Positions 3,396 through 54,629 of a stretch of 64,000 bases of DNA are shown here, in pieces. The DNA comes from Rhizophagus irregularis (Eukaryota). The first letter of the stretch is position 1, and every line of letters starts with the position of its first letter. Under the pieces are notes generated by a model, which was not told the DNA's origin, made no database searches, and worked only from the letters and a program-made list of their open reading frames with translations. Made by a program: the position numbers and the translations under genes. The stretch covers positions 3,410,001 through 3,474,000 of the forward strand of contig NC_089433.1 in NCBI RefSeq assembly GCF_026210795.1, read 5' to 3'.

Positions 3396-3521
3396 GGTAG
3401 ATTGTTCTTATTTTGGAAGTAAACCGTCATCATTTGCAGTTGGCGTACGTACTGCTTAACCATATATGATATCTGAAATAACTATAAATAATTCTTTTTT
3501 TTTTTAAAAAAAAAAGAAAAA

Positions 3522-5031
3522 ATGGTTACTCAATTTTTTTCGAAATTAAGTCAAAATTATATTGAATTATTAAAAGACGATGAATATTATGATGTCACAA
3601 TTGAAGTTGGTGAAGACCCTAACGTAAAAATATTTTGTGCTCATATGAATATTTTGTGTTACCGTTCTCCATATTTACGACGAATATTAAAGTCTAACAA
3701 AAAGAACAATGATAACGTTTTAACCCATATTAAATTATCAAACACATCACCGGAAATCTTTCAAATTGTATTAGAGTAAGTTAATTATCATGTTATATAT
3801 AACTTTGAATATTCAAATTATAACTTTTATTTTTATAATTAGGTATATTTATGGAGGTATTCTTTCATTGGATGAAAAAGACACTTCAGACCTTCTTAAA
3901 GTTTTGGCTACTGCAGATAAACTTAGTCTTCAAGAGCTAGTTGATTATTTACAAGGATATTTAATTGAAAATAAGTCTGAACAGCTAGAACAATATTTTG
4001 AATTTGCTCAACAAATTAGCTCAAATTCTAATAATTTATTAAAACTTCAAGAATTTTGTACAAATTTAATGGTTCAGTCTCCCGAGAAAGTTCTTAAATC
4101 ATTAAATTTCACTTCATTTCCTGAAAAATCTTTAATTTCACTTATTAAAAGTGATGATTTACAAATGAAAGAAATTGAAATATGGGAACATGTATTAAAA
4201 TGGGGACTTGCACAAAATCCAACTCTCATTCCAGATCCTAAAACTTGGTCTGATGATGATTTTAAAACAATGAAGAATACTCTACAACATTGTTTACCCT
4301 TCGTTAGATTTTTTTGTTTATCACCAAAAGAATTTTCACAAAAAGTTCGTCCATATCAAAAACTCCTAAATCAACAACTTTATGAAGATTTATTAAACTT
4401 TTATTTAGATCCTGAAAGTGTATCATCTCATAACATTCAACTTCCTAGAAAAATTAAAATTAATGAAAACATTGAAGTTATTTGTTCACTAATCGTTAAT
4501 TCTGGTATTGTTTCAACAATTTCAAGATGGATAGATAAAATAGTTATTAATGATAATAATTTTAATGAATCATATTTACCATATAAATTTGAATTATTGT
4601 TAAGAGGAAGTCGAGATGGATTTACTCCTAAAAAATTTCATGAATTGTGTGATAATAAACCTAATACTGTTACATTCATTAAAATAAAAGGAACAGAAGA
4701 AATTATTGGTGGGTATAATCCAGTAATATGGGAAACCCCCCAAACGAGTTCTTGGGGTAAAACCGAAGATAGTTTTATTTTTTCTTTTAAAAATAAGAAT
4801 AATTTTAAAGATGCAATTTTGAGCAAAGTAATAAATTCTAATTATGCACTATTATTTGGTTCTATATCTGGTCCATATTTTGGTGGTGATATTAATATAA
4901 ATGCTTCAAATGAATTTGTAAATTATGACACCACTGAATATTATAATAGTTTTTATGAAAAAAAGATAAGAGATATTGAAGGTAAATTTATTGTAGAAGA
5001 TTACGAAGTGTTTCAAATAATAAAAAAATAA
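3522..5031 (+). CDS. BTB/POZ-BACK-TLDc domain protein (exons 3522-3775 and 3843-5031)
   Basis: BTB motif DVTIEVG..F.AH..IL..RSPY; GTAAG..AG intron restores E-YIYGG; BACK motif EIEIWEHVLKW; TLDc motifs LLLRGSRDGF, IIGGYNP, DSFIFSF, DYEVFQI. Confidence 0.9.
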
Positions 5032-7727: not shown

Positions 7728-9222
7728 CTATTTTCTAATAATACGAAATATTTCATAATCTTTAATAGCAAATTTACCATTTTTTCTTATATTTTTTTCA
7801 TAATGTTTACATTGATGATAACTTTCATCATAATTTGCGAATTCATTGGAAGAATATACGACAATGTCATCTCCAAAACATGGTCCACCTAAATAGTCAA
7901 ACCATACTGCACGATCACTATGATCTACATTACTAATAATTGCATCTTTAAAAAAGATATCATTATCATTGAAAGAAAAAATAAAACTATCTCTTGCGAA
8001 TCCCCATTTACTAGAAGATTCCCATTTTAATGGATTATATCCACCAATAATTTCATTCGTTCCCTGTATTTTAATAAATGTTATAGTATTAGCCTTACCG
8101 TCACATAATTCATGAAATTTTCTAGGTGTAAATCCATCCTGGCTTCCTCTTAACAATAATTCAAATTCATAAGGTAAATATAAATCTCTAATATAAGCGA
8201 ATTTATTATCGATAACCTTATTATCGATCCATCTTGAAATAGCTGAAACAATTCTCAAATCCACAATCTCTGAATCGATTTTGACATTTCTCGGGAGTAA
8301 GATGTTTTCATTTGGTTCATTATCGGGATCCATATAAGAATTTACTAAATCTTCATAAAGTTGATGATTTAATAGTTGTTTATATGGACGAACTTTTTGT
8401 ACAAATTCTTTGGACGATAAACAATAAAATCTGATTAAAGGTAAACAATTTTGTAAAGTATTTTTCATTGTATCGAAATCATTATCTGCCCAAGTATCAG
8501 GATCTGGAATAAGAGTTGGATTTTGCGCAAGACCCCATTTTAATACATGTTCCCATACTTCAACTTCTTTCATTTGTAAATTATCCCTTTTAAGAAGTTT
8601 AATTAAAGATTGTTCAGGAAGTGAAGTAAAATCAAATGACCCAAATATTTTTTCTGGAGATTTAGCCATTAAATTTGTACAAAATTTCTGAATTCCTAAT
8701 AAATTATTAGATTGAAAACTTATTCGATGAGCAAGTTCAAAATTTTGAACTATCCATTCCGATTTATTTTCAATTAAATAACTTTGTAAATAATAAACTA
8801 ACTCTTGAAGACAGAGTTCATCAGCAGCAACCAATACTTTAAGGATGTCTGAAGTAACTTGCTCATTAAACGAAAGAATGCCACCATAAATATACCTAAA
8901 TTATAAAAAAATTATAAAATTAAATCGAAAAGTAATTTAAACGTTTAATTTATTTCTTCATAACTTACATTAAAATAATCTCAAATGTATCTGGTGAAAT
9001 ATTTGGAAATTTAATATGAGACAAGGTACCATCATTCTTTTTTTTATTAGAAGCCAAAACTTTTCGAAAATATGGAGAACGATAACATAAAATATTCATG
9101 TGGGTACGGAATATTTTTACATAAGGATCTTCACCAACTTCAATCGTAGTATCGTAATATTCATCGTCTTCTAACAGTTCAATATAATTTTGACTGAGTG
9201 TCGCAAAAAAATGTGCTGCCAT
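7728..9222 (-). CDS. BTB/POZ-BACK-TLDc domain protein (exons 9222-8969 and 8895-7728)
   Basis: Same motifs and intron position as the 3522 gene; GTAAGT..TAG intron at 8968-8896. Confidence 0.9.
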
Positions 9223-10519
9223 GATATATAAATTTTTTTTTTCTTGAAAAAGAAAAGGTATAATTTAGAAACAATGGGACAATGAATCTATTTTTATAAT
9301 TGATGTAGATAGTAGATACCTTCTAAAAAGAAAAATGATGATCATTTTCAATGCGGGGCGAACGGGGACCTTATATTCACATGATCAACAATAATATTTA
9401 ACGTCATAATTTGATATAATAGTCAATTAGTCATACACCCGAATAGACATGGTCTTGAGTGTCTTCCGCTGCGCTTACATAATATGATAAAAGATGTTCG
9501 TTAAAAATATCTTGGGGAGTAGGGGCTTATAATAAAAAAAGAATATTCCCCTAAAGATAACAAAGTTAAGTTTTTTAATATCAACTTTGTTTTTCTAAAT
9601 ATTATTTATCAAGTTATATCTATGAAATTGATTTTCAAACTTTAAAAATGACAAATAGTGTAAAAAGTAAATTGTTATTCTTACAATAACTTGATAAGCA
9701 TTTTTCACATTTCCACTTTTGGCAATTGATTATGAAATAAAATCATGTGCACATAACTAATAGATCGAAATTTCGTATAATCATCTATTTTATCATAAAA
9801 AATGCGGCATGAATAATTTATAACAATACGAACACTACTTTTTTAATTTATTTTTGAAAAAAATTTGCTTTATTTCATTAAACTTTGTCATTTAAAATTT
9901 TCAAAAAAATTAATTTCAAAGCTTTATACTCGCTTTTTTTCTTACCAATATTCTACTTCAAAGAGCAAAATATATAAATGAAAACCCTCCAAGCTATTCA
10001 TTGATGCTATTTTAACAACTACTATATAAATCATTTAAATGACACGCCAACTGATCATATTAGTAAATAACCCGATCCAATTTATCATCACACTACTATT
10101 ATGGCACTACCAAAAAATTAATAATCCAATCCGCTCAATAAAGTTTAAAATTAATCTAACCAGTTAAATCAACGAACTTTAAATTATAATAATTTTGGCT
10201 AAAATTTTTTTAATTCTAGCCAAAATCGTAGTTCTACTAAATTTGGTTAAAATTGACCATTTTCATCGGAAAAAGTATGGTCCGAAAAAAAATTATAGAA
10301 CAAAGTAATTCTACTTTTGGTTAAAGTAAATTAACTATTGGTTAGAAGATATAAATAACGTCAAAAAAATAAAAAAATAAAAAAAATATTCTAGTATGTT
10401 TCGAAAATAATCAAAATAATCTAAAATGGGAACCAAATTTAGTAAATTAAAAATCTCAAGTAGTAGAAAATTTTATAGTAGCGTTTATTGTACTCCATCA
10501 CTGTCTTTATTGCCAATTT

Positions 10520-12368: not shown

Positions 12369-15300
12369 TTAAATTTCATTTATATCAAACTCATATTCTT
12401 TTGTAATATATTCTAAAGAAAAAGAACCAAGTAATTAATAAACTCCTTTACATACTGATTAAAAAAAATAACTTAATACCTTTATTGTTGATTGATTCTT
12501 CAACGAGTTTATTATCTAAGATAATAATAATTATTAAATATGTTAAAATGTAGTAATTATTGTCCAAATTTATATAAAAATAATGTTTACATACTTGGTT
12601 TCGTATTAAACGTTATTGATCTGCTTGTATAAATTGCATTTGGATGAGGTTTTTCATTAAAATCTGGTCCAAGCATTTTTAATTTTATTAATTCTAATCT
12701 TATTTCTTCAGCTTGATTAAAATATTTGGCATCCATTCCCATATTTGACCACGAATTAAAAATTTCACAAACATCCGTTGCCAAAGGTCTCTTTTTAGGA
12801 TCAGGATTCCAACATTTTTTCATTAAATTAACAAAATCTTCAGGAGTGTCGTAAGTAATATTAGGTCGTTTTCCATCAATAATTTTGTAAATCAAATCAA
12901 CATCATGTTCAACATCAGCAAAAGGTTTACAACCAGTTGTTAATTCCCACATAATCATGCCCATACAATAAATATCAGATGATTTAGAAAATTTGGCGCC
13001 TTTAAATATTTCTGGTGCAATATAAGGTATAACTCCATATATACTGCTATCGTGTGGAATGTCATTTGCGGGCTGTGATAATCCTAAATCTCCAATTAAA
13101 TATTGATCTATTTTACATGAATCATTTTCAATTATTTCAACCAATATATTTCCACTATGAAAATCTCGATGTACGAAATCTTTTTCATGAATAGTTTGAA
13201 GTCTAAAATAAAAAATTGGTTATTAATAAAATTTTATTTAAATAATTTTAAAATCATTATTAATTAACGTAAAGTTATAAATACCCATCTGAAATTCGCC
13301 ACAAAATGTGCAATTTTTTCTTCCATGTAATCTCTGCAAAATTCTTTTGTAAATAATTATGTAAATCTCCTCCATTTGCATATTTCATTATAAACATAAA
13401 TTCTTTTGTTATAGGATCTTTTGCGATACCATGGCATTTAATAATATATTCAAATTTACTATCATAACATTGATAAAGTGATTTTAACTAAAATTTTATA
13501 GTTTAAGTTAGTATATTAAATGTTTTTAAAAAAAACAAATTTTGAAAATTAATTACCTCATTTAAAAAATATTTATTTGGTTCTTGAGAATTTAAAACTT
13601 TTTTTATAGCAACAACGTTTCCATTAATTAAAGCTTTATAAATAATACCAAATCCTCCTTCTGCTATTTTTTTAAAAATTTTAATTTGTGAATATGAAAC
13701 CCATTTTATTTTCGGTTTTGTAGAATGATAATCAAACTCATTTTGAGAACTTTGATATTTTTGTTTCAAAGATTTAAGAAATCCTTGAGAATCTTCTAGA
13801 ATTTCATTTAATTCATCACTGGTAAAAACAAGTAAATGACTTGTATAACATGCTTTTGGATGAGATTTTACAATAAGATTATTATGCTCAATTGGTGCAT
13901 TTATAAATTCCATAATATTACTTTTTAATTCTTCATTAATATCTTCAATTTTCTTATTCTCAGGGCGAAAAATCCAATTTTCAATGATATTTAAAACTTC
14001 TTTAGAAGATGGCCTTTTTAATGAATCTTGATCCCAGCATTTTTTCATTAAATTTATATAACATTGTGGAGTATTTTCAATAATTTCAGGACGTTCACCT
14101 TTACAAATACTTAAAGCAAGTTGAAGATCATGTGCTTTATCATTAAATGGTGGAATTTTAGATATAAATTCCCACATAATTATAGAAAAACTATATATAT
14201 CACTAGCTTGAGTATAAGGCTGACCTCTTAAAATTTCGGGTGCTATAAATGGTAAAACTCCATAGATATCATTTTCTTTTAAAAAAGATTTTGCAAGTTG
14301 ATATAATCCTAAATAATCACTAATAAAAATTCCATATATATCTTCATATTTGCTACATAAAATATTACCATTATGAAAGTTATAATGAATAAGATCTTTT
14401 TCATGAATATCATTAAGACCCTTAATAATTTGATATAAATGAAATAATTTTTGTTCCCAATTTTTTGTTATTTCTATTAAACAACTTTTTAAACTATCCT
14501 TATTTGTATACTCCATTATTAATGCATAATTCAAAGTATCTGGATCTTTTGTAAATCCATATATTTTAATAATTTCACATGAATTAATAATTTTCAACTA
14601 TAAAAAAAAATAATATTTAATTAATTACATAAATAAATTATAATATTAAAAAATAATAATAATATTATTATATCATACTTCATTTAAAAATTCATTTAAA
14701 CTTTCATCTGAATTTTTAAGATAATCAAAATATTTAAAAATTACTTCAACACTATTATATTTAGCTTTATATATAGAACCAAATCCTCCTTTATCAAGAT
14801 ATTCAATATTTTCAAATTTATCATAAGGAACCCATTTTAATTTATTTTTAGAAATAAATTGATCCACAATTTCACTTCCACTATTACCAAATCTTTAAAT
14901 ACAAAAATGAAATTATATTAAAAATTAAATTTAAAATCAAATTTACAATTAAAAATTTAAATATTAAATAATAATAATTATACTTACTCTAAATAAATTA
15001 TAAAATTTTAATATAATAAATAATTAATTAATTTAAATTTTAAATAAATAGTATATAATAACTTATAACTTACCAACTAAAATAAATTATCAAAATTTTT
15101 AAAAAAATTATATATTATAATAAATTAAATATAAAAAAGGATTATTATAATAAAAAAAATGCAATACTTACAGGCTAAATTATTTTAAATTATTTTAAAT
15201 GATTTTAGTTTAAATAATTTAGTTAGTTTAAATTATATGTAAATATTATATAAATATAATAGTATTACTTACGATCTAAAATATTTGAATAATTTTTTAA

Positions 15301-18300
15301 ATAAAGAATTTAGTTAGTTTAAATTATATGTAAATACAATAGAATTAAATAAATAACTTTTAACTTACCAACTAAAAGAAAAAAAGAAATTAAAAACAAT
15401 TTTTTAAATAAAGAATTTAGTTAGTTTAAATTATATGTAAATACAATAGAATTAAATAAATAACTTATAACTTACTAACTAAAAGAAATTACAAAATAAT
15501 TTTTAAATAAAGAATTTAGTTAGTTTAAATTATATGTAAATATTATATAAATATAATAGAATTACTTACATTCTAAAATATTTGAATAATTTTTTAAATA
15601 AAGAATTTAGTTAGTTTAAATTATATGTAAATACAATAGAATTAAATAAATAACTTTTAACTTGCCAACTAAAAGAAATTAAAAACAATTTTTTAAATAA
15701 AGAATTTAGTTAGTTTAAATTATATGTAAATATTATTAAATATAATAGTAGAATTACTTACAATCTAGAATATTTGGATAATTTTTTAAATAAAGAAATT
15801 AGTTAGTTTAAATTATATGTAAATATTATATAAATATAATAGAATTAAATAAATAAATAACATACTCCCTATATTATTAAGTAAATAATTAAATAAAGAA
15901 TTTAGTTAGTTTAAATTATATGTATATAAATATAATAGAATTACTTACATTCTAAAATATTTGGATAATTTTTTAAATAAAGAATTTAGTTAGTTTAAAT
16001 TATATGTAAATATTATATAAATATAATAAGATTACTTACGATCTAAAATATTTGAATATTTTTTTAAATAAAGAAATTAGTTAGTTTAAATTATATGTAA
16101 ATATTATATAAATATAATAGAATTACTTACGATCTAAAATATTTAAATATTTTTTTAAATAAAGAAATTAGTTAGTTTAAATTATATGTAAATATTATAT
16201 AAATATAATAGAATTACTTACGATCTAAAATATTTAAATATTTTTTTAAATAAAGAATTTAGTTAGTTTAAATTATATGTATATAAATATAATAGAATTA
16301 CTTACGATCTAAAATATTTGGATAATTTTTTAAATAAAGAATTTAGTTAGTTTAAATTATATGTAAATACAATAGAATTAAATAAATAACTTTTAACTTG
16401 CCAACTAAAATAAATTAAAAACAATTTTTTAAATAAAGAATTTAGTTAGTTTAAATTATATGTAAATATTATTAAATATAATAGTAGAATTACTTACAAT
16501 CTAAAATATTTGGATAATTTTTTAAATAAAGAATTTAGTTAGTTTAAATTATATGTAAATATTATATAAATATAATAGAATTACTTACTATCTAAAATAT
16601 TTGGGTAATTTTTTAAATAAAAAAATTAGTTAGTTTAAATTAGTATATGTAAATATTATATAAATATAATAGAATTAAATAAATAAAAAGTAAATAATTA
16701 AATAAAGAATTTAGTTAGTTTAAATTATATGTAAATATTATATAAATATAATAGAATTAAATAAATAAATAACATACTCCCTATATTATTAAGTAAATAA
16801 TTAAATAAAGAATTTAGTTAGTTTAAATTATATGTAAATATTATATAAATATAATAGAATTAAATAAATAAATAACATACTCCCTATATTATTAAGTAAA
16901 TAATTAAATAAAGAATTTAGTTAGTAAATTATATGTAAATATTATATAAATATAATAGAATTACTTACGATCTAAAATATTTGGATAATTTTTTAAATAA
17001 AGAATTTAGTTAGTTTAAATTATATGTAAATATTATATAAATATAATAGAATTACTTACTATCTAAAATATTTGGGTAATTTTTTAAATAAAAAAATTAG
17101 TTAGTTTAAATTAGTATATGTAAATATTATATAAATATAATAGAATTAAATAAATAAAAAGTAAATAATTAAATAAAGAATTTAGTTAGTTTAAATTATA
17201 TGTAAATATTATATAAATATAATAGAATTAAATAAATAAATAACATACTCCCTATATTATTAAGTAAATAATTAAATAAAGAATTTAGTTAGTTTAAATT
17301 ATATGTATATAAATATAATAGAATTACTTACATTCTAAAACATTTGGATAATTTTTTAAATAAAGAATTTAGTTAGTTTAATTATATGTAAATATTATAT
17401 AAATATAATAGAATTACTTACGATCTAAAATATTTGAATAATTTTTTAAATAAAGAATTTAGTTAGTTTAAATTATATGTAAATATTATATAAATATAAT
17501 AGAATTACTTACGATCTAAAATATTTGGGTAATTTTTTAAATAAAAAAATTATTTAGTTTAAATTAGTATATGTAAATATTATATAAATATAATAGAATT
17601 AAATAAATAAAAAGTAAATAATTAAATAAAGAATTTAGTTAGTTTAAATTATATGTAAATATTATATAAATATAATAGAATTAAATAAATAAATAACATA
17701 CTCCCTATATTATTAAGTAAATAATTAAATAAAAAATTTAGTTAGTTTAAATTATATGTAAATATTATATAAATATAATAGAATTACTTACAATCTAAAA
17801 TATTTGGATAATTTTTTAAATAAAGAAATTAGTTAGTTTAAATTATATGTAAATATTATATAAATATAATAGAATTAAATAAATAAATAACATACTCCCT
17901 ATATTATTAAGTAAATAATTAAATAAAGAATTTAGTTAGTTTAAATTATATGTAAATATTATATAAATATAATAGAATTACTTACAATCTAAAATATTTG
18001 GATAATTTTTTAAATAAAAAAATTAGTTAGTTTAAATTACATGTAAATATTATATAAATATAATAGAATTAAATAAATAAATAACATACTCCCTATATTA
18101 TTAAGTAAATAATTAAATAAAGAATTTAGTTAGTTTAAATTATATGTAAATATTATATAAATATAATAGAATTAAATAAATAAATAACATACTCCCTATA
18201 TTATTAAGTAAATAATTTAGTTAGTTTAAATTATATGTAAATATTATATAAATATAATAGAATTACTTACAATCTAAAATATTTGGATAATTTTTTAAAT

Positions 18301-19826
18301 AAAGAAATTAGTTAGTTTAAATTATATGTAAATATTATATAAATATAATAGAATTAAATAAATAAATAACATACTCCCTATATTATTAAGTAAATAATTA
18401 AATAAAGAATTTAGTTAGTAAATTATATGTAAATATTATATAAATATAATAGAATTAAATAACATACTCCCTATATTATTAAGTAAATAATTAAATAAAG
18501 AATTTAGTTAGTTTAAATTATATGTAAATATTATATAAATATAATAAAATTAAATAAATAAATAACATACTCCCTATATTATTAAGTAAATAATTAAATA
18601 AAGAATTTAGTTAGTTTAAATTATATGTATATAAATATAATAGAATTACTTACATTCTAAAACATTTGGATAATTTTTTAAATAAAGAATTTAGTTAGTT
18701 TAATTATATGTAAATATTATATAAATACAATAGAATTAAATAAATAACATACTCCCTATATTATTAAATAAATAATTTTAATTAAAGAATTTAGTTAGTT
18801 TAAATTATATGTAAATATTATATAAATATAATAGAATTACTTACGATCTAAAATATTTGGATAATTTTTTAAATAACGAATTTAGTTAGTTTAAATTATA
18901 TGTAAATATTATATAAATATAATAGAATTACTTACGATCTAAAATATTTAAATAATTTTTTAAATAAAGAATTTAGTTAGTTTAAATTATATGTAAATAT
19001 CATACAATAGAGTTAAATAAATAACTTACAACTTACCAACTAAAAGAAATTACAAAATAATTTTTTGAATAATGAATTTAGTTAGTTTAAATTATATGTA
19101 AATATTATATAAATACAATAGAATTAAATAAATAACATACTCCCTATATTATTAAATAAATAATTTTAATTAAAGAATTTAGTTAGTTTAAATTATATGT
19201 AAATATTATATAAATATAATAGAATTACTTACGATCTAAAATATTTGAATAATTTTTTAAATAAAGAATTTAGTTAGTTTAAATTAAATGTAAATATTAT
19301 ATAAATATAATAGATTAAATAAATAACTTACACCCTGTAGCATTATTAATTAATAATAATTATAAAGTAAAGTAATTATAATCAATAATTGTATTTAAAA
19401 TTAAGTATATACAGTAACTTACAATCTAATTATTTAAATAAATATTATTAGTTTAAATTATATATAAATACTTTTAAATTAATATAAAATTAAATACTTA
19501 CTTTCTATAATATTAGTACCATAATTATTAAACAATTATATTAATAGTAAATTTGGTTATTTAAAATCTCAGGCAAAATACAATGAAAAAAAATTAGCTA
19601 TTAACTTACCAACTATAATAATAAAATAAATTATTTGGTTATATAAAATAATAGAAATAAGTAATTTAATTATCATTCCGATTATAAGATAACCTATTAC
19701 TTACGAGCTAATATAGTAAATAATTTTTAGAAATAGTTTAAAAATTTAAATTATACGCTTATAATTTACAAGCTGTTAAATAATTTTCTTACCTTTATCT
19801 TTTTCTATTTTTGAAACTAGTTTCAT
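12369..19826 (-). CDS. Tandem pseudokinase + TKL protein kinase with a microexon-encoded N-terminus. Exons: 19826-19793, 47 x 3-nt exons, 1-nt exon at 14988, 14892-14679, 14597-13557, 13487-13285, 13202-12595, 12515-12480, 12412-12369
   Basis: Canonical splice sites join the track ORFs in frame. Domain 1 has GGFG, VIFK, HYNFHNGN, SDYLG, APE. Domain 2 has GGFG, VAIK, HRDFHSGN, GDLG, APE, SDIY. The C-terminus reads EYITKEYEFDINEI*. The kinase body is high confidence; the 5' microexon model is predicted from sequence only. Confidence 0.8.
14893..19792 (-). repeat. Tandem array of ~80-110 bp intron + microexon units
   Basis: About 50 units sharing the core AAAGAATTTAGTTAGTTTAAATTATATGTAAAT; all but three contain, on the minus strand, TAG/CAG-NNN-GTAAGT/GTATGT/GCAAGT. 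Confidence 0.92.
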
Positions 19827-20777
19827 TATGTTGCAAATTTGGTTTGAAAAAAATTTTAGAGCAATTTCAATTTGTATTAGATATCTATACTCATATTATA
19901 TGCTTTTACCTTCGTCGTTACTTTGAGCCATTACTAAATAATTTTATTGGAATTCTTCCTAAAAATAGGGTAAATACAATTAAACGCCTTTATTCGAATA
20001 TATATAGTTGTTTGTGTAATATTATCTATGCAAAATGCAGATACCAATTTTCAGCCAGATATATTTAATTAGGTAACAAGAACCGTTAGAGTATCCGAAA
20101 TGTTGATGACATCACTAAATTAAAAACGCAACTTTCTTGTCGATCATTAGCTACAAAAGAGTTAAAAGTCAAAACTAATATAGTAATTAGTGCTCTTTGA
20201 AAATTTTGTTGTGAAGTAAGAAGGTGGGCATATCAAAAGTCTGAGTAATTTGTGACTTTGAAGACGGCTGAGGGTGGCGGCGTGGCACAAGAAATAAATA
20301 GTTTTTAGTTTCTGTATTTTTTTTTAGTTATTAGATTTTTTTGATTTTTTATCGATACAAGCATACAGTTTAGTCTAGCATCATATCTGATATGTATTTT
20401 GGTAGTTAGCAGTTAGGTTTAGAGTTTTGTTTTGTCTTCTAGTTTAACAAAAATTCAGTAGTTAAACGAAAAATAGAACATGTATTAGGTCATGTGACGC
20501 GGTGTTTTGTTGTAAGATGTACAGTACATTCTAGTCCTCGATGATTGAAAAGAAAAAGAGATTCTATTTATTTTTTGTGAACCATTTTTTTTTAAAAAAA
20601 AATTATAATTATCTGTACTATACTCCAGAGCGAAGAGTGGAGACTATATGTGATTTATAAATCATTTATTGTCCGGAGGACTATATATGTTTGTGAACTT
20701 TAATTGCATATTGGATCACGTGGCGAAGTCTGTTTGAAATGGATTATCAAAATCGATATATAACCTTAAGCTTATAT

Positions 20778-29183: not shown

Positions 29184-30692
29184 TTATTCCCTAATAATTT
29201 GGTATACTTCATAATCTTCCATAAAAAATTCACCATCATCTCTTATTCTTTTTTCATAATAATATCTCTTTTGATAATGAATTTCATCATAATTTGTAAA
29301 TTCATAGGAAGCGTATATATTGATATCATCTCCAAAGCATGGGCCAGCTGTAGTACTAAACCATAATGCACAATCCGCAACTTCTATATTACTAATAATT
29401 CCATCTTTAAAAAAGATATCATTACTTTTAAGAGAAAAAATAAAACTATCTTTAGCTTCACCCCAATCATAATTAGACTCCCATTTTATAGGATTATATC
29501 CACCAATAATCTCATCCGTTCCTCTTACTTTAATAAAAGTAACAGTATTTGATTTACCATCACATAATTCATGGAATTTTTTAGGAGTTAACCCATCTCG
29601 ACTTCCTCTTAATAATAATTTAAATTTATAAGGTAAATATAAATCTCTAATATAAGCGAATTTGTTATCGGTAACATTATTATCAATCCATCTTGAAATA
29701 ATTGAAATAATTCTTAAATCTACAATCCTTGAATTAATTTTGATATTTCTAGGGAATAAGATGTTTTCATTTTGTCCATTATCAGGATCCATATAAGAAT
29801 TTACTAAATTTTCATAAAGTTGATGTTTTAAAAGTTTCTTATATGGACGAACTTTTCGTACAAATTCTTGAGATGATAAACAATAAAATCTGATTAAAGG
29901 TAAACAATTTTGTAAAGTATTTTTCATTGTATTGAAATCATCATCTGTCCAAGTATCAGGATCTGGAATAAAAGTTGAATTTTTTGCGAGACCCCATTCT
30001 AATACATGTTCCCAAACCTCAACTTCTTTCATTTGTAAATCATCTCTTTCAATGAGCTTAATCAAAGATGTTTCAGGAAGTGAAGTAAAATCAAATGAAT
30101 CGAATATTTTTTCAGGAGATTTAGCCATTAAATTTGTACAAAATTGTTGAATTACTAATAAATTAGTAGATTGAAAACTTATTCGATGAGTAAGTTCAAA
30201 ATTTTGTTCTATCCATTCCGATTTATTTTCAATTAAATACCCTTGTAAATAATCAATTAATTCTTGAAGACAAAGTTCATCTGCAGCGGCTAAAATTTTA
30301 AGGATATCGGAAGTATCTTGTTCATTTAATGAAAGAAAACCACCATAAATATATCTAAATTATGAAATTCATAAATTAAATTAGAAATTTAATCATGTAT
30401 TAAAATTATTTCTTTATATATCAGATATAACTTACTTTAAGATAATCTGAAATATTTCTGGTGATATATTTGGTAATCTGATATGAACTAAATTATTAGT
30501 ATTATTGCTCCTGTTATTGGAAGCTATAATTCGTCGTAAATTTGGAGAACGGTAACATAAAATATTCTTGTGAGCACGGAATATTCTTACATAAGGATCT
30601 TCACCAGCTTCTATCTTAATATCGTAATATTCGTCATCTTCTAATAGTTTAATATAATTTTGACTTAATTTTGAAAAAAACTTTTTTAACAT
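29184..30692 (-). CDS. BTB/POZ-BACK-TLDc domain protein (exons 30692-30436 and 30354-29184)
   Basis: BTB, BACK and TLDc motifs; conserved phase-2 intron before YIYGG. Confidence 0.9.
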
Positions 30693-32250: not shown

Positions 32251-33754
32251 TTAATTTTTCACAATTTGAAATATTTCATAATCTTCCATAGAAAATTTGC
32301 CTTCTTGATCTCTTATCTTTTTTTCATAAGAAGTATTTATACAAAAGAACTTACAAAAATTTTCATTTTCATTTAATGAACCTATTGCAAGATCACGATT
32401 AAAACATGGTCCATTTCTTGGGTGATTTGCCATTGCGCAATTAATATTTTTTACATTACTAATGATTGCGGTTTTAAAATTACTTTTAAATGAAAAAATA
32501 AAACTATCTTTAGTTTTAATCCAATTATTAGAAGTTGACCATGTTAAAGGATTATATCCACCAATGATTTCTTCCGCTCCTTCGATTTTAATAAAAGTGA
32601 CAGTAATGAGTTTATCATCACATAATGTATGAAACTGTTTAGCAGTAAAACCATCTCGACTTCCTCTTAGTAATAATTTAAATTTATATGGTAAATATAA
32701 TTCTCTCAAATAAGAAAATTTACGATTAACATCCACTTTATCAATCCATCTTGAAATAATTGAAACAATATTTAAACTAACAATTGTTGAATCAATTACT
32801 TCGTCAATATGAATATTTCTAGGAAGTGAAATATTATCATTTGGTATACTATCAGGATTCATGTAAGAATTTAATAAATCTTTATAAAGTTGAGAGTTTA
32901 AAAGTTTTTTATATGGATCAATATTTTGTAAAAATTCTTTAGATGATAAACTAAAGAATCTGATTAAAGGTAAACAACGTTGTAAAGTATTTTCCATCAT
33001 TCTATAATCATCATCAGTCCAAGTATCAGGATCTGAAATAAGAGTTGAATTTTGCGCGAGACCCCATTCTAATACACGGTCCCAAACCTCAACTTCTTTC
33101 ATTTGTAAATCATCTCTTTCAATGAGCTTAATCAAAGATGTTTCAGGAAGTGAAGTAAAATCAAATGAATCGAATATTATTTCAGGAGATTTAGCCATTA
33201 AATTTGTACAAAATTGTTGAATTTCTAATAAATTATTAGATTGAAAACTTATTCGATGAGTAAGTTCAAAATTTTGTTCTATCCATTCCGATTTATTTTC
33301 AATTAAATACCCTTGTAAATAATCAATTAATTCTTGAAGACAAAGTTCATCTGCAGCGGCTAAAATTTTAAGGATATCGGAAGTATCTTGTTCATTTAAT
33401 GAAAGAATACCACCATAAATATATCTAAATTATGAAATGCATAAATTAAATTAGAAATTTAATCATTTTTTAAAATTATTTCCTCACAACCCACCTTAAG
33501 ATAATTTGAAATATTTCTGGTGATATATTTGGTAATCTAATATGAACTAAATCATTAGTATTACTGCTCCTGTTATTGGAAGCTAAAATTCGTCGTAAAT
33601 ATGGAGAACGGTAACACAAAATATTCGTGTGAGCACGGAATATTCTTACATAAGGATCTTCACCAACTTCAATTGTAATATCGTAATAATTTTCGTCATT
33701 ATCCAATAATTCTAAAAAATTTTGGCTTAATTTTGAAAAAAATTTTACTGACAT
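32251..33754 (-). CDS. BTB/POZ-BACK-TLDc domain protein (exons 33754-33495 and 33424-32251)
   Basis: Same motifs; the in-frame donor is the weak AG|GTGGGT. Confidence 0.85.
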
Positions 33755-35064
33755 TTTATAGAATTTTTCCTTTTTTTAAAAAAAAAGAGAGAAAGAGAGG
33801 TAAATTTTTAATGCGTGTTTATATATCTGGTATGTAGATCTCTAAACAAACTTTAAACCAGTTTTAATCTAGTTTGATATTTTTTATGATCATGTGATTA
33901 TATTATAAATAATGTATTTTGCATGTATGAAATGCGAAATAACAATATATTGTTTTTACAGGAAAATATAATGATAATAACTCAGGAGAGGATTGTGAAA
34001 CTGACACGTAGTTAGTATCACATTAACAAAGGCATAAAAATTTGAGATCTATAATTTTTTTATTAAAATAATATTTTATAAATTATTTACACAATTTAGA
34101 ATAATCATAAGTGCAAACTTACTAGTATATTTATAGTTTGATCAACAACTAAAAGTATAAAAGTTTACTAATTAATAATATTAGGAATGTAAATAAATCT
34201 GAAGTTAACTGTTCAATTACAAAACTGATTTTATTTATGTAAAAAAAAAAATTTTACATGTACTCTACAATCAGTGTTGAACATAGATATGTATATATGA
34301 TAAAATAAAAATAATTAACTAATATAATGTTATAAAATAATAACTTAAACTAAAAATAAAATTTGATTCATTTTATTCATTTGTATCATCTTCGATTGAT
34401 AATCTGTAAGAATTGATTTTGGATTAGATAACTGAAATTCAATTATAATATTTATTAAAAATAAAAAATTATAAGACTTAATTTCTACTGTATTATTATC
34501 AATATTATCAAATTTTGGGATATTTTTTGTAAAAGGATTTAGTAACCGAGATTTATAAATAGCTTGTGTGGATGAGCCAGAGCAGTACTTTCATCAAAAG
34601 AAGTAGGATGTGATCTTCTGTATTTTTCTGCTTTCTCAATTTGTTTTTGAATTTCAAAATGTATTTGTTCTTTTTCAAACCCATATTTACTTTCAAGGCA
34701 TGATTAGAATCACTTGCCGAATATAAGAACATAAATAAATTAAAAATTTCAGCTGCTTTTGGTCTATTATTCGGATTTGAATCCCAACACTGTTTCATTA
34801 AGTCAATGTAACATTTTGGTGCTTCTGGCTCATTAATTTCAGGTCTAATTCCACTGCAGATATTTAATACTAATAACTCATCATGTGCACAATTGAAAAA
34901 GGGGTTGTCTTCCAGTTGCCACAAAATACATAATCATGCCAAAACTATATATATCTGCTGCTTGAGTATAAATTTCCCCTTTTAATACTTCAGGAGCTAC
35001 ATAAGGCATAACTCCATAAATATTATTATGATCATTATTACTAACATCTCCACATAATCCCATA

Positions 35065-35257
35065 AGGACCCCGAGCAATATATAAATAGGTAACAAGAGA
35101 TCGGCACAAATTTACTAATAGCTCTACGCATCTCTTCAGGGCCGGCACTATGTAATTCTGGTCAGAATTATCCAAAAAAGGAAATGATCTACATACTTTT
35201 GGGCTCATTCTACGCAAACTCTCTATTTTTACCTTTTCATGTATTGTTCGGGGTCCT
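35065..35257. mobile_element. hAT-like MITE (193 bp) inserted in the kinase DMG motif
   Basis: TIRs AGGACCCCGAGCAATA / TATTGTTCGGGGTCCT; perfect 8-bp TSD ATCCCATA at 35057-35064 and 35258-35265. Confidence 0.9.
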
Positions 35258-37009
35258 ATCCCATATCTGAAATATAAAATATACTACTACTATTAGTTGC
35301 ACCAGCAATATTTGATAATATATTCCTGTATGAAAATCATGGTGAACCATCTTTTTTTGATGAATTTCTTTAAGACCCGTACTAATATTAAGTAGCATTG
35401 ATATTTTATTGTACCAGTTAAGGTTTCTATAATTTTTGTTCATCCAATTCTTTAAATTTCCGCCCTTTGCATATTCAAGAACTATAATGTAATCCTTTGT
35501 ATCTGGATTTTGAGATATTCCATATATTTTAAGTATTCCTCCATTATCAATTGAATATGATTTAACCTATTAAATATAAAAGAAATTTATTATTAAAATA
35601 TATAACTAAATTAAATTTACAGAAAAATCCTGTACCTCATTAAGAAATTCACTTGTGATATGTTGGGAATTATATAAACATTTTAATGCAACTTTTTTAT
35701 TCTGATTGATTTATTACATTATATTGTAATGGGCCATCTTTCCATATTGCTAAATACACTTTAGCAAATCCACCTTCACCTATTTCTTTAATATTGATAA
35801 ACTGATTATATGGTATCCATTCAAATACTATATCATTATAAGTATTAATTTTTGACTGCATTTCCTGAATTAAATTATTAATTCTTTCATATTTACTGGT
35901 CCAGTTCATAGAACTTTTTCTTGATAAAGCATTTTTTTGACATGGTTTGCACCATTTATAGAAATAGAAATATCTGTAAGTCTTTTACATTTTTCACAAT
36001 AATATTTATTTGGAAAAACTATAATATAATCTCTTGTATTAGGATTTTGAGATATACCATATATTCTATGTTCATTACTAGTACTATTAACCTATAAAAT
36101 AAAGAAGTTTTTTATTATATTAAAGTATTTAATTTAAAAAGAAAATCTTATACCTCATTCAGAAATTCATCGGTAGTAGTATTTTGCGAATTATATAATT
36201 TTAGAATGACTTTTGTATTCTTTCTTCTTATATATTTGTTGTCACAATAATTAACATAATTATAAAACAATCGATCATCATTCCATATTGCTGAATAAAT
36301 CATAGTAAATTCATCTTTTTCTAACTCTTTAATATTATTAAACTGATTATATGGTATCCATTCAACTATAATATCATTAAACCCATTAATATTTAATTGT
36401 TTTTCCTGAACTAAATTATCAATTTTTTCATTTCCGCTGGTCCAATTTTTTTCTAAATCATTAATTTGACATGATTTACACCATTTATAAGTTTTCTTTG
36501 TAAATTTCTTACCACACTTATTACAATATAAATTTCGGAGAATTAAAATATAATCTTTTGTTTCTGGATTTTGAGATATTCCGTATAAATACTTCCCATC
36601 AAAAAATTTAACCTGTAAAATATAAGAAAATTATTATTATTACACTTTACTAAATATTTATTAATAGTGAAAATATATACGTACCTCATTTAGAAATTCA
36701 TTGGTAATACTTTGAGAGTTGTGTAGATATTTACAATTGGCTTTTATATTCTGTTTTCTCGTATATTCATATTTATTTGTATCATATTTTAATAGACCAT
36801 TCTTCAATATTGCTGAATATATTGTAGAAAATTCATCTTTTCCTAATTCTTTGATATAATTGAACTGATTATATGTTATCCATTCAACTATAATATCATT
36901 AGAGTTATTAATTTCTAATTGCATTTCCTGAATTAAATTATCAATTTTTTCATTTCCACTGGTCCAATTTGTAAAATTATTTTTTAGATTATTTATCTGG
37001 CACGGTTTG

Positions 37010-38873
37010 ATAATGGTGTAGTTAGCCGAAAAATTCAGCCGAAGGCGCAGTAAATTTTCGGATAACAACACCCAGCCGAAAAAAATTCATGTTGATCTAG
37101 AATATTTTATTGAATGTTTTATTGGTTCAACATCTACTATTTTCGGCTGAATATTTTCGTCTAACTACACTTTTTTTAAATAATAGTGTAGTTAGCCGAA
37201 AATATCCAACCAGAGGCGCAAGAAACGCCAATATATAATATTCCAGGAGACCAAAGCGAACCAGCAAGACAAGGAGGCAACATCAAAATGTGATGATTTT
37301 ATATATATTTAATATATTTAACTTATTTAATTATAAAATATATAAAATTTTATAATCATTTATATTTTATTAAGCTATAATAAATGTTCAAACAAAATTT
37401 ATTTTAATTATATTATTATTCAATTTAATCATACCACAAATGCCTTACTTTCAGTTTGTTTCTCAATCCATAATTTAATAGCATTTCTCATCAATGCATT
37501 AGCAGATAATTCAGATCTTTTAACAATTTTAGAAACAGCTGATTGTCCAAATCCAATTTGTGATTTAGCTAATTCACAAATTTCATCAGCAGCAATTTGT
37601 TGTGTAATACCTTTAAAAGAATTTTACACTTTTGAAATGCTTCAACAAATCCATTTGCTATTATTTGATCCTCTAGTGATACTTTTGTTTATTTCCATTG
37701 TTCAATGGGATCATCATCTTTAATTTTGTTTAACCTTTTTTTTTATTTGGCTGAGAGCTTTTTACATATTTTCGTGATCTAATATTTAACTGAGGCTAAA
37801 CCATATAGAGCACCTAATGGACTCCATGCTCCTATACGACACATTTCCATAATCTCAGCAACAAATGGTGCAATATTTCTATATTCTATTTGCTAATATT
37901 TCTTATTATTTGCTTTTAAAAATGCTCTATCTAAATACAAATAATCTTTTTCAAAGACTTCTAAGACAAGATATTCATCAGCATATGCCATCAACTCTAA
38001 TATTGTAAATAGACGAAGTTGTGTTGATAAAGAGTTTTTGTGAATAAAAAAATAGGATACTGCATTATATAAGCAATTTCCATCAGCAGTTGTATCAGCA
38101 TATATATAACCATTAAATTCATCTGGTAATAATAAACATGCACCTTCATCTATAACTATACCCTCAGATATACAAACATCTACATATGAAAGATCACAAG
38201 ATAAAATTTGAATTTTTTTATGCTTTTGTCCATAAGACATTATTTCACTTAAACTTGGTAATTTGGCAAGGAATTTTCTAGTTTTAATTAAAAGTTGTTT
38301 AAATAGAATCCATAATTAAGTGAAGTATTTCAGTAAATTTAGCAAATTTTATAACAAAGAAAAAAAGTTTATTAAAAAAAAAATTATCTTTGATTATATT
38401 TAAATCCATTTTATTGAATATTTTCCAAGAATTTAAAAATTATTTACAAGCAAATATTAAAATTAAACATTTTAAAGAAACAATTTTACACCAAACAATA
38501 CCATTTAATAATTAACGATTCTGTATTACATAGATTAATATTATCAAGAAAAGTATATAATTATTATTATTGTAATAATTACATAATATTTACCATTAAA
38601 TAATAATGGTAAATATTATAATATGAACAATCAGGATTTTCATTACCTGTTACCACTTAAATTATTGTATTGCATTTGATATTTACGGCTAACTACACTT
38701 TTTTAAAATAATAATGTAGTTAGCCGTAAATATCTAGCCGAAAATAGTAGATGTTGAACCAATAAAATATTCAAAAAATATTCAAGATCAACATGAATTT
38801 TTTTCGGCTGGGTGTTGTTAGCCGAAAATTTACTGCGCCTTCGGCTGAATTTTTCGGCTAACTACACCATTAT
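37010..38873. mobile_element. MULE-like element with ~195-bp TIRs
   Basis: Long TIRs ATAATGGTGTAGTTAGCCGAAAAATTCAGCCGAAGGCGCAG...; 9-bp TSD CACGGTTTG/CACGGTATG; removing it restores the kinase WCKPCQ codons. Confidence 0.9.
37440..38300 (-). pseudogene. OTU/vertnin-like cysteine protease fragment carried inside the MULE-like element
   Basis: TTADGNCLYNAVSYF..STQLRLFTILEL matches the OTU DGNCL catalytic-Cys motif; continues after a break as EIMEMCRIGAWSPLGALYGLASV. Confidence 0.6.
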
Positions 38874-41387
38874 CACGGTATGCACCATTTAGAATATGTA
38901 TCTAAATATTTGCTAACACATTTATCACAATATATATCTTGAAGAATTATAATATAATCCTTATCAGGATTTTGAGATATTCCATATAGGTGATCATTCT
39001 CAAAATATGGCTTAACCTATTGAAACATAAAATTTTATTATAAAATAATTTATAAATTAAATTAAAGGCATACATAACTTATTCAGAAATTCACTGGTAA
39101 TATTTTGTGAGTTATATAATTTTAAATTGACTTTTGTACTCTGATAGAAATAAATATGAATATATAAGAAAACATACTTTAATGGACCATCCTTCCATAT
39201 TGCTGAATATATTGTAGCAAATTCATCTTTTCCTAACTCTTTAATATCATCGAACTGATCATATGGCATCCATTCAACTATAATATCACGATCATCAATT
39301 ATTAATTGCATTTCCTGAATTGAATTATCAATTTTTTCATTTCCGCTGGTCCAATTTGTAAAATTTTTTTCAAAATCATTTATCTGGCATGATTTACACC
39401 ATAAACTAAATTCATCTATAAAACATTTGCTACATTCATTACAATATTTATTTCGAAGAACTAAAATATAATCTTTTGTGTCTGAATTTTGCGATATACC
39501 ATATAGATCATCACGCGCCTATCAAAACAAGAGAAATTTATTATTATTAGGATCATGCCGATCTTGATGGACCGTTATTTTTATCAGTAAAAAGGGTGGG
39601 ATAAAAATATTGGTTATGTATAAAAATAACACGTTAATTAATTAAAAAACTAGGCTTTTATATAAAAACTGCTAAAATTAGGCATGATCTTGGGTGGCAT
39701 GCATAATAATACAGCTATTGAATGGGAGGGTAACATATAAAATCACCCCTATAGAGTGACCAATATTTTTACCCATCCAATAACTATATTTAAAGTATTT
39801 AAATTAAATAGTATAATTCATACCTCATTTAGAAATTCATCAGTAATATTTCGGGGGTTGTGTAAACATTTTAAATTAACTCTTGTATCCTGGTTTCTTG
39901 AATATTTTCGTTATATTTTAATGGACCATCCTTCCATATTGCCGAATAAATTGTAGAACATTCATCTTTATCTAACTCTTTAATATCATTAAACTGATCA
40001 TATGGTATCCATTCAGTTATATTATCAGAACTTCGAAGGATTTCTAATTGCATTTCCTGAATTAAATTGTCAATTTTTTCATTTCCACTAGTCCAATTTG
40101 TAAAATTATTTTGTAGATTATTTATCTGACATGATTTGCACCATTCAAAACGTAAATACTTTCCACATCTTTCACATTTCATTGTAATAATAATATGGTT
40201 TATACTATTTTAAAATTTTTCAACGTTTACAAGAAATGAAAATCTTGGAACGTCCAACAAGTTTCTTATCTATTGATTTGTTGGCGTAACGTCACATTTG
40301 CCACAAGTCCCATTAATTGATTAAATATTGTTGTGAATAATCATTTGGGTGACACGTGTGACGATTAATTCCATAAATGTTTATTATGTATTTTATAAAA
40401 TATATTAATAAAAATAAATTCAGTTCAAAACTAGCAGTTACCCGCTGCTACCAATGAGTTTGTTTAAGAATTAAGTAGAACAATTTAGTATTATAATGTA
40501 AATCATATCGACAATTAGTAGATTGATATAAATTATATTTACAGTATTAGAATAATATAAATTAGTATATTTAGAATACAATATTAGAATTATATGAATT
40601 ATATTTACAATAATGTCAATAATGTAAATGATATAAATTACAGTGCATTAGGGTAATTTAAATTATATTTACCATTAATAGGTATATGTAATATGAGAAT
40701 TTAATACGTTGATATGATTAATGATTATATGGCGTTTATGCAATTATGATCTATAAAATTTATGCCTGCTCTATACTTGGTTTTTGTTCTCTACACTTGG
40801 CTTTTGATTTTTTCTGTGACGGGCTTGACTTTCATTATTTAATCTTTTTTTACGTTGTTCAGATATTTCACTTTCAAATAATTAAGCCATATGGATTTAG
40901 TATTAACAAAATATTACATATTATATTGATGGAAATTTTTGATACTTAATATATCATTTATGAAATATAAAAAAAAAATTCTCAATAATATATACAATAC
41001 ATGTGGTTCATCGTTCAACAATATATTTGTACAGTATATTATTTAAAAAAAAAATATTTAAAAAAATTTCTTACTGCTTTTTATTATATATTAAAAAAAC
41101 CTACAATAAAAAAGAAATTAACAATTATGTCTGCAATTTATTATTGTTAAAAAAAAATTCTCAAAAAAGAGATATTATCTTAACACGTCCATTTATTATT
41201 ATCTTTGGTAAAATAAATCAAATTATTCTACAGCCAAATAGGATCATGCTTTTTTCATCATGCTGATATTTTTTTATTAAGCTATAAATAAACTACCATT
41301 GCATAATTATTATTGATATTTTTGACGTTGATTAATCAATAGTTTATTGTATTTATAAGATGATCATTGGCGGCTGCAGAATAACAC

Positions 41388-47189: not shown

Positions 47190-47660
47190 TTAATTTCCAT
47201 ATAATAACTTCTAATAAAATTGTATACACATAAATAATACAAATAAAGAAAATAAATAAATATATAAATAATAATAAATTGAATAAATTGAATAAATATA
47301 ATAATGATATATATGTAAATTGAATAAATATAATAATGATATATATGTAAATTGAATAAATATAATAATGATATATATGTAAATTGAATAAATATAATAA
47401 TGATATATATGTAAATTGAATAAAGCGATATAATAATGATATATATGTAAATTAAATAAATATAATAATGATATATATGTAAATTTATCACATAAAATCA
47501 ATATCTTTAATATAGTTAACTTCTAATAAAATTGTATACACATTAATAATACAAATAAAGAAAATAAATAAATAAATAAATAATAATAAATTGAATAAAT
47601 TGAATAATGATATATATGTAAATTTATCATATAAAATCAATATCTTTAATATAGTTAACT
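47190..47660. repeat. Minisatellite (32-bp unit AATTGAATAAATATAATAATGATATATATGTA, ~6 copies) inside a larger direct duplication
   Basis: Tandem copies at 47286-47483; flanking block repeated at 47515-47660. Confidence 0.85.
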
Positions 47661-52800: not shown

Positions 52801-54000
52801 CCATTATATTATGATAATAGTAAATGTAGCTATCTAAGAAAACAGAATAAAACAGTCAATTTAAAATATTTGCATAACTCTCAAAATATCATTGATGAAT
52901 TTCTAAATGAGGTATAAATTTTTATTATTTTTTCACAATCAATGGATGATTCATAATATTGAAATTAAATTTTAAAATTTCTATTTTAATAGATTAAAAC
53001 ATACTCAATTAGTAAAAGTTTTTGTGGGATGTCTCAAAAATTGGATACAAAAGATTATATTTTAGTTTTCCTTCAAAACGAAACTTGTGATAAGTGTGGT
53101 AGACAATTTACATATGAAAATACTAAATATTGTAAACCATGTCAAATTGATGATTCAGGAAAAATATCTACAAATCGGATTAGTGGAAATAAGGAAATTG
53201 ATAATTTAATTCAAGAAATGCAATTAAATATTAATAACCATGGTACCGTAGTTGAGTGGATACCATATACTCAATTCAATATTATTAAAGAATTAGGAAA
53301 AGATAAACTTATTACAATATAATTTAGCAAGATGGAAGGATGGTCCATTAGAATACAATAATAGTGAATGGAAATATTTAAGAAAACAAAATAATATAGT
53401 CAATTTAAAGGTATATAATTCACAAAGTATTTCCAATGAATTTATAAATGAGGTATGAATTTCATTATTTGATTTAAATATTATATATATAATAAGTAAT
53501 TTTTTTTTTATCTTGATAGATTAAAGCATATTTAAATGATATTTATAGTGATAATATTAAAATATATGGAATATCTCAGAATTTAAATACAAAGGATTAT
53601 ATTTTAGTTCTTGAAAATATATACTGTAATAAATGTTGCGAATATTCTAGATCGATGTGGTGCCAGCTATGTAACATAAATAATCTAAAAAAAAATCTTA
53701 TTAAATGGACTAGTGGAAATAAAAAAATTGATAATTTAATTCAGAAAATGCAATCAAATAATGATAACCATGATTTCATAGTTGAATGGATACCTTATAA
53801 TCGCTTCAGTGATATTGAAGAGTTAGGAAAAAATAAATTTGATACAATATATTCAGCAATATGGGAAGATGGTTTATTAAAATATGACAGTGATAAATAT
53901 GAATATACAAGAAGGCAGAATACAAAAGTCAATTTAAAACAGTTATATAATTCACAGAATATTTCTAATAAATTTCTAAATGAGGTATGAAATCTTTATT

Positions 54001-54244
54001 TTTATTTTTTATTTTTATTTAACAGTAATAGTTAGCGGATACAAATTTTATAAACATATCAAAAATGAAAAAGTAAAATAAAAAAATGAACTAAACTATC
54101 AGAAGAATCTACTTCGACGGTGGGGCAATTAAACACGAAACTATTAAAGATATAACCAACTACACCTAAAAACCATTTCTTTAATTAACCCACTACCTCC
54201 CATACGCTAGCCGAAACTTGGTAAGTTGAAGCCCGCCCTGCAGA
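54001..54244 (-). mobile_element. Short retroposed insertion at a splice donor
   Basis: 18-bp TSD AGGTATGAAATCTTTATT at 53983-54000 and 54245-54262; T-rich tract at the left end is an A-rich tail on the minus strand. Confidence 0.75.
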
Positions 54245-54629
54245 AGGTATGAAATCTTTATTAACACCCAAGTAGGATTTTAAGGCGATTTTTTACTTTA
54301 AAAGGCAAAAATTTTGGTTGATCATTTCATTTTTCACCAAAATTTTCTATTCCGTTTTTGAAAATCATCCACATGCATAGTTGCCATGGATACAAAAAAA
54401 ATTGCCTTTTTCGTAAAAAACTCTCAATTTAATCTTAAGTATTAGTACAGTACTGTACATGTACATGTACAAGTACAAGAACATGTACATGTACATGTAC
54501 AGAGAAAGTGAACATTCACTATGGAAACTTTTTGCACTGAGTTTAACTGTGCTGCTCAAAAAGAATGTTAACTTGACAGATCATGAATAAATCAACATTT
54601 TTTAATAATATGTCGATCATTTTATTAAA

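Follow-up and report, generated by a model that had tools for sequence, protein, structure and literature searches.

A satellite-like chain of three-nucleotide exons feeding a likely pseudokinase-kinase gene in Rhizophagus irregularis

In a stretch of 64,000 nucleotides (nt) of Rhizophagus irregularis DNA (assembly GCF_026210795.1, contig NC_089433.1, positions 3,410,001 to 3,474,000 of the forward strand; hereafter the window, numbered from its first letter), what looks like a satellite repeat on the minus strand is a spliced chain of 3-nt exons that feeds a kinase, a conclusion supported by an intron-free assembly from sequencing run X1. The whole chain spans about 4.6 kb and comprises 47 three-base segments and one single-base segment, with splice signals around each. 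Such an arrangement had been proposed in an earlier note made from the letters of the window alone, and its core claim, that satellite-like triplets are spliced into a kinase, is borne out by 11 consecutive junctions in the X1 assembly, including that of the 1-nt exon. It is probable that the chain, joined into a likely pseudokinase-kinase message, encodes a 48-residue N-terminal segment of the protein, which is likely to be a fast-evolving variable tip.

RNA evidence for joined three-base exons

The run search found 24 runs, and none of those listed as containing the sequence is on record as RNA, which counts as evidence in neither direction. X1, X2, X5, and X24 were aligned to the 3' flank of the array (13400-15200), while the 5' flank (19335-20700) was compared with X1, X3, X4, and X24; X24, consisting of raw polyA reads, is the one run on record as RNA. 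The key contig is record 7 of X1 (905 nt, depth 17), which covers 14084-14597 and 14679-14892 over 728 nt with 0 mismatches, lacks the 81-nt intron between them, and continues for 177 nt beyond 14892. Thirty letters of this overhang were compared, and all 30 are identical to the predicted exon join, comprising the 1-nt exon, nine whole triplets, and 2 bases of the tenth (exon 38); one of the junctions crossed belongs to a GC-AG intron, and the letters are completely unlike the genomic neighbours of 14892. The first 13 of the 30 letters, with 5 junctions, recur in X2, which comes from a second study. The ordinary intron at 14598-14678 is spliced out in X1, in X2, and in 2 reads of X24, and depth in the intron bins of X1 and X2 is near zero, as RNA would give. 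Transcripts that lack every triplet, or that begin downstream of the array, were what the earlier note had named as speaking against the chain, and the X1 letters contradict that outcome.

The remainder of the overhang bears on the more distal exons. Record 7 found no match at 19335-20700, where records with 36 matched letters (two 18-nt pieces) did align, and a contig with the 24-nt exon plus 18 nt or more of the next exon upstream should have aligned there too. Its long-exon part would accordingly not exceed about 41 nt, so that the array would supply no fewer than 136 of the 177 nt, equal to 45 triplets or more. The sum 142 + 24 + 11 = 177 nt is an exact fit to full inclusion. Alignment-tool behaviour and overhang length thus suggest that at least 45 triplets are included in the X1 transcript, and the dominant transcript there likely includes nearly all exons. 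Skipping may add further isoforms; none were seen.

Layout of the array and the gene model

On the minus strand of the window, the pattern YAG-NNN followed by GTAAGT, GTATGT, or GCAAGT occurs at 48 sites, 47 of them within 14893-19826 and with exactly the positions and sequences listed in the earlier note, while the same scan found 0 three-base acceptor-NNN-donor sites on the plus strand of the window. Spacers of 0, 2, or 4-9 nt gave 0 sites on the minus strand, and a 1-nt spacer gave only exon 14988, the single A already placed there. Tandem Repeats Finder describes 15211-19314 as a 91-bp tandem repeat of 43.6 copies, and the repeat core consists of three unit classes in a higher-order repeat arrangement. 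The array introns measure 75-105 nt, except for three of 186 nt, each of which has lost acceptor, exon, and donor in one deletion block of about 21 nt, a natural instance of frame-keeping exon loss. In 40 of the 46 introns that separate triplets, the ACTAAC-like branch motif reported previously is recovered as CTAAC, its A lying 26-50 nt before the intron end (38-43 nt in 37 cases), and 0 array introns contain an AG within the last 45 nt before the acceptor. The DNA of the window is AT-rich and eukaryotic; two of its other tandem repeats, at 54904-56615 (79-81 bp) and 47284-47485 (32 bp), hold no acceptor-NNN-donor sites. The features of the gene, all on the minus strand, are as follows.

19910-19931, minus strand: probable part of the first coding exon (ATG 19931), 22 nt, with phase 1 at its end; a start of the exon near 19958 is possible; based on the open frame, paralogous RNA joins (X3, X24), the design of metagenome locus L078, and MA.SN.K starts, rather than on RNA of the exact locus
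19793-19816, minus strand: 24-nt phase-1 exon with a CTAG acceptor and GTAAGA donor and a counterpart in paralogous RNA; ATG 19826 would then lie in the upstream intron
19332-19707, minus strand: microexons 1-5, 3 nt each, in diverged non-repeat introns, from the splice-signal pattern
15273-19235, minus strand: microexons 6-45, 3 nt each, in the homogenised repeat of about 91 bp with three unit classes and CTAAC mostly 38-43 nt from the acceptor, from the pattern; exons 38-45 joined in the X1 contig
17516-17701, minus strand: 186-nt intron equal to two fused repeat units, with further copies at 17063-17248 and 16592-16777
15074-15174, minus strand: microexons 46-47, in diverged introns, joined in the X1 and X2 contigs
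14988, minus strand: single-nucleotide exon (A), phase 1 to phase 2, from the pattern and the X1 and X2 loose ends; a 1-nt exon occupies the same position in the homologous locus L067
14679-14892, minus strand: first long exon, which opens kinase domain 1 with its glycine-rich loop, matched by X1 record 7 with 0 mismatches; homologues up to 89% identical
13557-14597, minus strand: remainder of kinase domain 1, with HYNFHNGN replacing the catalytic HRD loop (likely pseudokinase), then a linker and the beginning of kinase domain 2 (Pfam Pkinase, PK_Tyr_Ser-Thr)
13285-13487, minus strand: middle exon of kinase domain 2, with predicted frame-keeping GT-AG junctions
12595-13202, minus strand: kinase domain 2 with an intact HRDFHSGN catalytic loop (Pfam)
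12480-12515, minus strand: predicted 36-nt exon near the C-terminus
12369-12412, minus strand: predicted last coding exon and stop codon

Scripted joining of the exons gives a single open frame of 777 residues from ATG 19931 or 773 from ATG 19826, which reproduces the stop-free translation into the kinase claimed earlier. The microexons contribute 142 of the 2334 coding nt, and the predicted peptide of 48 residues is rich in Trp, Asn, Arg, and His. They had been described as codon-length exons, which is true of their size, all being 3 nt long, but not of their register: they lie in phase 1, and each residue is formed by one base of one exon and two bases of the next, until the 1-nt exon, which is required for the frame, moves the phase from 1 to 2. 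Computed skips rarely introduce stops (2 of 47 single skips and 38 of 1128 block skips), and about 10^12 distinct triplet subsequences are possible.

Translation probably begins at ATG 19931 and not, as first proposed, in an exon spanning 19826-19793, whose ATG is probably intronic. The 22-nt exon at 19931-19910 together with the 24-nt exon at 19816-19793 leads to a frame identical to that from ATG 19826. The upstream start is favoured because in transcripts of paralogues or alleles (one X3 contig and 8 X24 reads) a 19931-type exon is spliced to one that corresponds to the 24-nt exon, because the sister kinases P0163, P0170, and P0135 begin with a matching MA.SN.K motif, and because locus L078 carries a 22-nt ATG exon of the same design.

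The long exons encode two kinase domains (Pfam Pkinase and PK_Tyr_Ser-Thr). An aspartate in the catalytic loop marks an active protein kinase; domain 1 has HYNFHNGN where this loop is expected, without the catalytic Asp, while domain 2 has HRDFHSGN, with the Asp present. For this reason, the gene is likely a tandem of pseudokinase and kinase, with domain 1 as the putative pseudokinase. The tandem is of the Rhizophagus type within the tyrosine-kinase-like (TKL) family. A degenerate first catalytic loop is common to many homologues. The four best database matches are R. irregularis proteins with 80-84% identity, the nearest solved structures are the TKL kinases ZAK/MLT, CTR1, RIPK4, TAK1, and IRAK4, and the kinase domain is close to the R. 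irregularis expansion. According to the available parts of the papers cited here, to which all citations below are likewise limited, the TKL family is expanded in R. irregularis (PMC4219462), which has 2,533 kinase genes (PMC10234402).

Database models of homologues start at or just before the first long exon or carry short unrelated N-terminal stretches. Among 21 homologues matching the first kinase exon, 12 are annotated with a start at its Met, and most of the others have short unrelated N-termini. No microexon-encoded segment was found in database proteins whose N-termini were compared (sets of 62 of 120, 21, 43 selected, and 25). The present gene thus differs from the compared models of the expanded family in possessing this segment, beside a domain 1 without the catalytic Asp, and existing models of the family probably lack N-terminal sequence. 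In sister kinases, the same N-terminal slot holds acidic repeats of variable length, and the slot is therefore variable across the family; in P0163, P0170, P0295, and P0307, which are sister Rhizophagus kinases or fragments, these are acidic Glu-Phe-Glu-Gly-Ser repeats. Elsewhere in the window, inspection of the list of open reading frames by eye points to clustered genes of BTB/BACK/TLD-like type and to clustered kinases in which Cys-pair and WTSGN modules recur (3492-5031, 7728-9264, 29184-30359, and 32251-33775; 34553-40209; 51857-59138).

Variability, related arrays, and competing readings

Across 41 aligned units, column heterozygosity is 0.63 in the exon versus 0.13 in the intron, and 0 of 54 three-column intron windows are as variable as the exon. 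The exon mean also exceeds the intron mean in all 8 arrays tested, namely that of the window and 7 others. The column test is relied on here; a pairwise test of exon versus flank is biased, as its pairs are chosen by flank similarity.

These other arrays come from metagenome contigs, in which one pattern scan found at least 108 loci; of the 108, 21 had the spacing and the diversity of triplets that a filter required, and 18 distinct arrays, predicted from sequence alone, were analysed. L082 and L085 were dropped as the same arrays as L042 and L073, and L105, which repeats L044, failed the filter. L008, with a 99-bp period, was set aside as probably an ordinary coding repeat. Among the matches listed (L001-L103), most loci are TAAG-type microsatellites that mimic the acceptor-NNN-donor pattern, so the pattern by itself does not prove exons, and scans must filter such repeats. 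The viral contigs scanned gave 0 matches.

Several of the 18 predicted arrays are joined to kinases. L067 aligns with the window at 75% across repeat and kinase and has the same repeat unit and kinase exon, with triplets and a 1-nt exon, and five further loci (L031, L038, L053, L064, and L078) share the repeat unit at 65-71%. In L064 (176-2016, plus strand), an array of the window-type unit follows a SPRY-TPR gene, which shows that this unit also occurs beside genes other than kinases. L044 carries 21 phase-2 exons in diverged introns with an open frame into a kinase, the frame being fixed by the flanking exon. In L032 (6849-10400, plus strand, 48% GC), 42 phase-0 exons in a 76-nt repeat lead from an ATG without a stop into a kinase, again with the frame fixed by the flanking exon; the other two frames contain stops, and the encoded stretch is hydrophobic. 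A further predicted array, in L059 (96-3510, minus strand, 56% GC), follows an MLKL_N-kinase gene. As for array types, L044, L052, and L105 form a second AT-rich type in which GTGAGT donors are frequent, the introns have diverged strongly, and the phase-2 frame stays open, and L059, L012, L042, L047, L057, L073, and L106 are contigs of 54-58% GC in which three-base exon arrays have a different repeat unit.

Several points weigh against the reading of the repeat as a spliced chain encoding a variable segment. The RNA nature of X1 and X2 is only guessed, although RNA would account for the absent introns and the zero depth within them. The letters of X2 may be shared with a paralogue (11 mismatches) that branches from the same contig (records 13-15), X24 has no loose end at 14892 among the matches listed, and X5 showed no supporting joint; on the 5' flank (19335-20700), X4 added nothing. 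Ten of the 47 triplets are read directly, and 37 follow from the length argument, which presupposes that allele and 5' exons are the same and that no intron of the repeat is retained. The pattern YAGNNNGTAWGT has 46 matches versus 0.83 ± 0.95 in 100 dinucleotide shuffles, a comparison in which the array copies are not independent, most of them lying within the 91-bp tandem repeat; however, splice signals are retained outside the repeat, at 5 upstream and 2 downstream triplets and the 1-nt exon, all in diverged introns. Openness of the frame is weak evidence, as 17% of shuffled triplet orders are also open here and 6-89% in four loci with tested phase, and the frame of L067 is open only with its second acceptor. 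With regard to variability, the excess is modest within the commonest unit class (0.30 versus 0.07, with 3 of 68 intron windows as variable) and weak in the array of L059 (6 of 66 windows). The units also have a common ancestry, and AT-rich introns aligned with gaps look less variable than they are.

The favoured reading, a variable N-terminal tip encoded by the chain, would work as follows. Fungal splicing recognises short introns by intron definition. Each intron of 75-105 nt would be recognised on its own through a near-consensus donor, a CTAAC branch point, and a 3' stretch free of AG, and the tiny exons would therefore need no sequence of their own. Units of intron plus exon may be duplicated or deleted by unequal crossing-over, and since gain or loss of a unit keeps the frame, the length and order of the peptide would be free to change, while base changes would accumulate preferentially in the three exon bases. 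As the exons are in phase 1, a residue depends on two neighbouring exons, and removal of one exon would delete one residue and could alter its neighbour. The most likely role of the resulting segment would be that of a variable binding or regulatory part of a signalling kinase whose family is expanded, of the sort used in nonself sensing; that it may act in recognition is an analogy with the Tuber melanosporum receptors discussed below and with the domains beside other arrays.

It is possible, albeit doubtful, that the array is a splicing-based diversity generator, with exons skipped in many combinations within one mycelium as described for Tuber nank genes, a mode that can coexist with the variable tip. 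The Tuber precedent, the scarcity of stops created by skipping, the number of triplet subsequences available, and the presence of related arrays beside kinase, SPRY-TPR, and MLKL_N-kinase genes all favour it. The X1 contig, however, contains one path through the 177-nt overhang at depth 17, and no skipped form was seen, in contigs that drop rare variants and in X24 raw reads that are too thin, with the repeat itself beyond read-level view. A near-neutral linker, in which the unit of intron plus triplet has multiplied in tandem and is tolerated since the frame stays intact while the peptide is unselected, is unlikely. Such a linker would accord with the recently homogenised core and its higher-order repeat, with the unrelated low-complexity sequence that sister kinases carry in this slot, and with the apparent hypervariability that neutral exon bases could acquire between constrained intron signals. 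Against it, the exon bases exceed all or nearly all intron windows in variability and not the splice signals alone, the exact 3-nt spacing is kept in L044, L052, and L031 despite intron drift, and comparable arrays turn up repeatedly next to signalling genes in contigs whose base compositions are unrelated. Finally, an intronic satellite upstream of a gene that starts at the downstream Met, as 12 of the 21 homologues are annotated, is highly improbable, since a non-coding repeat would be absent from mRNA, whereas the repeat-embedded triplets are joined in the X1 contig and all 30 letters compared equal joined exons.

Beyond the variable tip itself, arrays of 3-nt exons can be tentatively envisaged, against the balance of probability, as a widespread and repeatedly evolved diversity generator of microbial eukaryotes, which on mycorrhizal pseudokinase-kinase receptors would provide a combinatorial sensor peptide diversified both in DNA, through the shuffling of units and through change focused on the exons, and by exon skipping in RNA. 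If true, phase-1 splitting could yield a Dscam-like repertoire from one gene at single-residue resolution, hidden from current annotations. The locus also offers an extreme and testable case of how the spliceosome handles back-to-back exons of 3 nt and 1 nt, shows that repeats masked as satellites in the genomes of mycorrhizal fungi can be coding, and offers a concrete means by which proteins could vary rapidly in fungi long seen as clonal.

Comparison with known systems

The earlier note knew of no gene built from dozens of consecutive 3-nt exons; a precedent exists in the nank receptors of the truffle Tuber melanosporum, for which alternatively spliced codon-sized or 3-bp exons are attributed to Iotti et al. 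2012 (PMC4986451, PMC3689799, PMC10197012, PMC13449251), two of the accounts citing that work speaking of "tens" of such exons. The kind is therefore already known in print, so far, within these accounts, only from truffle immune-receptor genes. No report of such arrays in arbuscular mycorrhizal fungi or in kinases was found in the literature, with subscription papers and supplements outside the scope of that search, and the available part of the R. irregularis exon and splicing account in PMC10234402 mentions no such array.

As far as the descriptions of nank extend, in both systems a fungal gene from an expanded family contains tens of 3-nt exons, and the organism is mycorrhizal. In the present gene, 47 consecutive sites lie between short introns, and the exons are joined in RNA at 11 junctions in X1 and 5 in X2, with the other 37 exons supplied by length. 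The hosts differ, nank being an NLR in an ascomycete and the present gene a TKL-type kinase tandem in a Glomeromycota-type fungus; membership of the nank family was rejected, as scanning of the three long coding stretches returned either kinase families or no family at all, and the full model has no room for NACHT or ankyrin domains. The nank exons are described as alternatively spliced, whereas one path is seen in the X1 contig. Phase-1 codon splitting, the terminal 1-nt exon, and the satellite-like introns are features of the present gene, with Tuber compared through its description.

Other genes built with very small exons differ more. The micro-exon genes (MEGs) of Schistosoma contain runs of short symmetric exons, mostly of 6-36 nt, that make up most of a secreted protein and do not form a tandem repeat. 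Runs of short symmetric exons are thus common to both, but MEGs are non-tandem and mostly coded by microexons, whereas microexons supply 142 of 2334 coding nt here. In Arabidopsis, an internal 1-nt exon of APC11 is needed for the reading frame (PMC4674806); that exon is isolated in the account given, whereas the 1-nt exon described here ends a chain of 47 triplets.

What is new here is the kinase host in a mycorrhizal fungus, codons split over two exons, a terminal 1-nt exon that is also present in a homologue, and exon bases that are more variable than the introns around them. With the predicted arrays, a device that had been in print for a single truffle gene family now extends to kinases and further signalling genes across several lineages.

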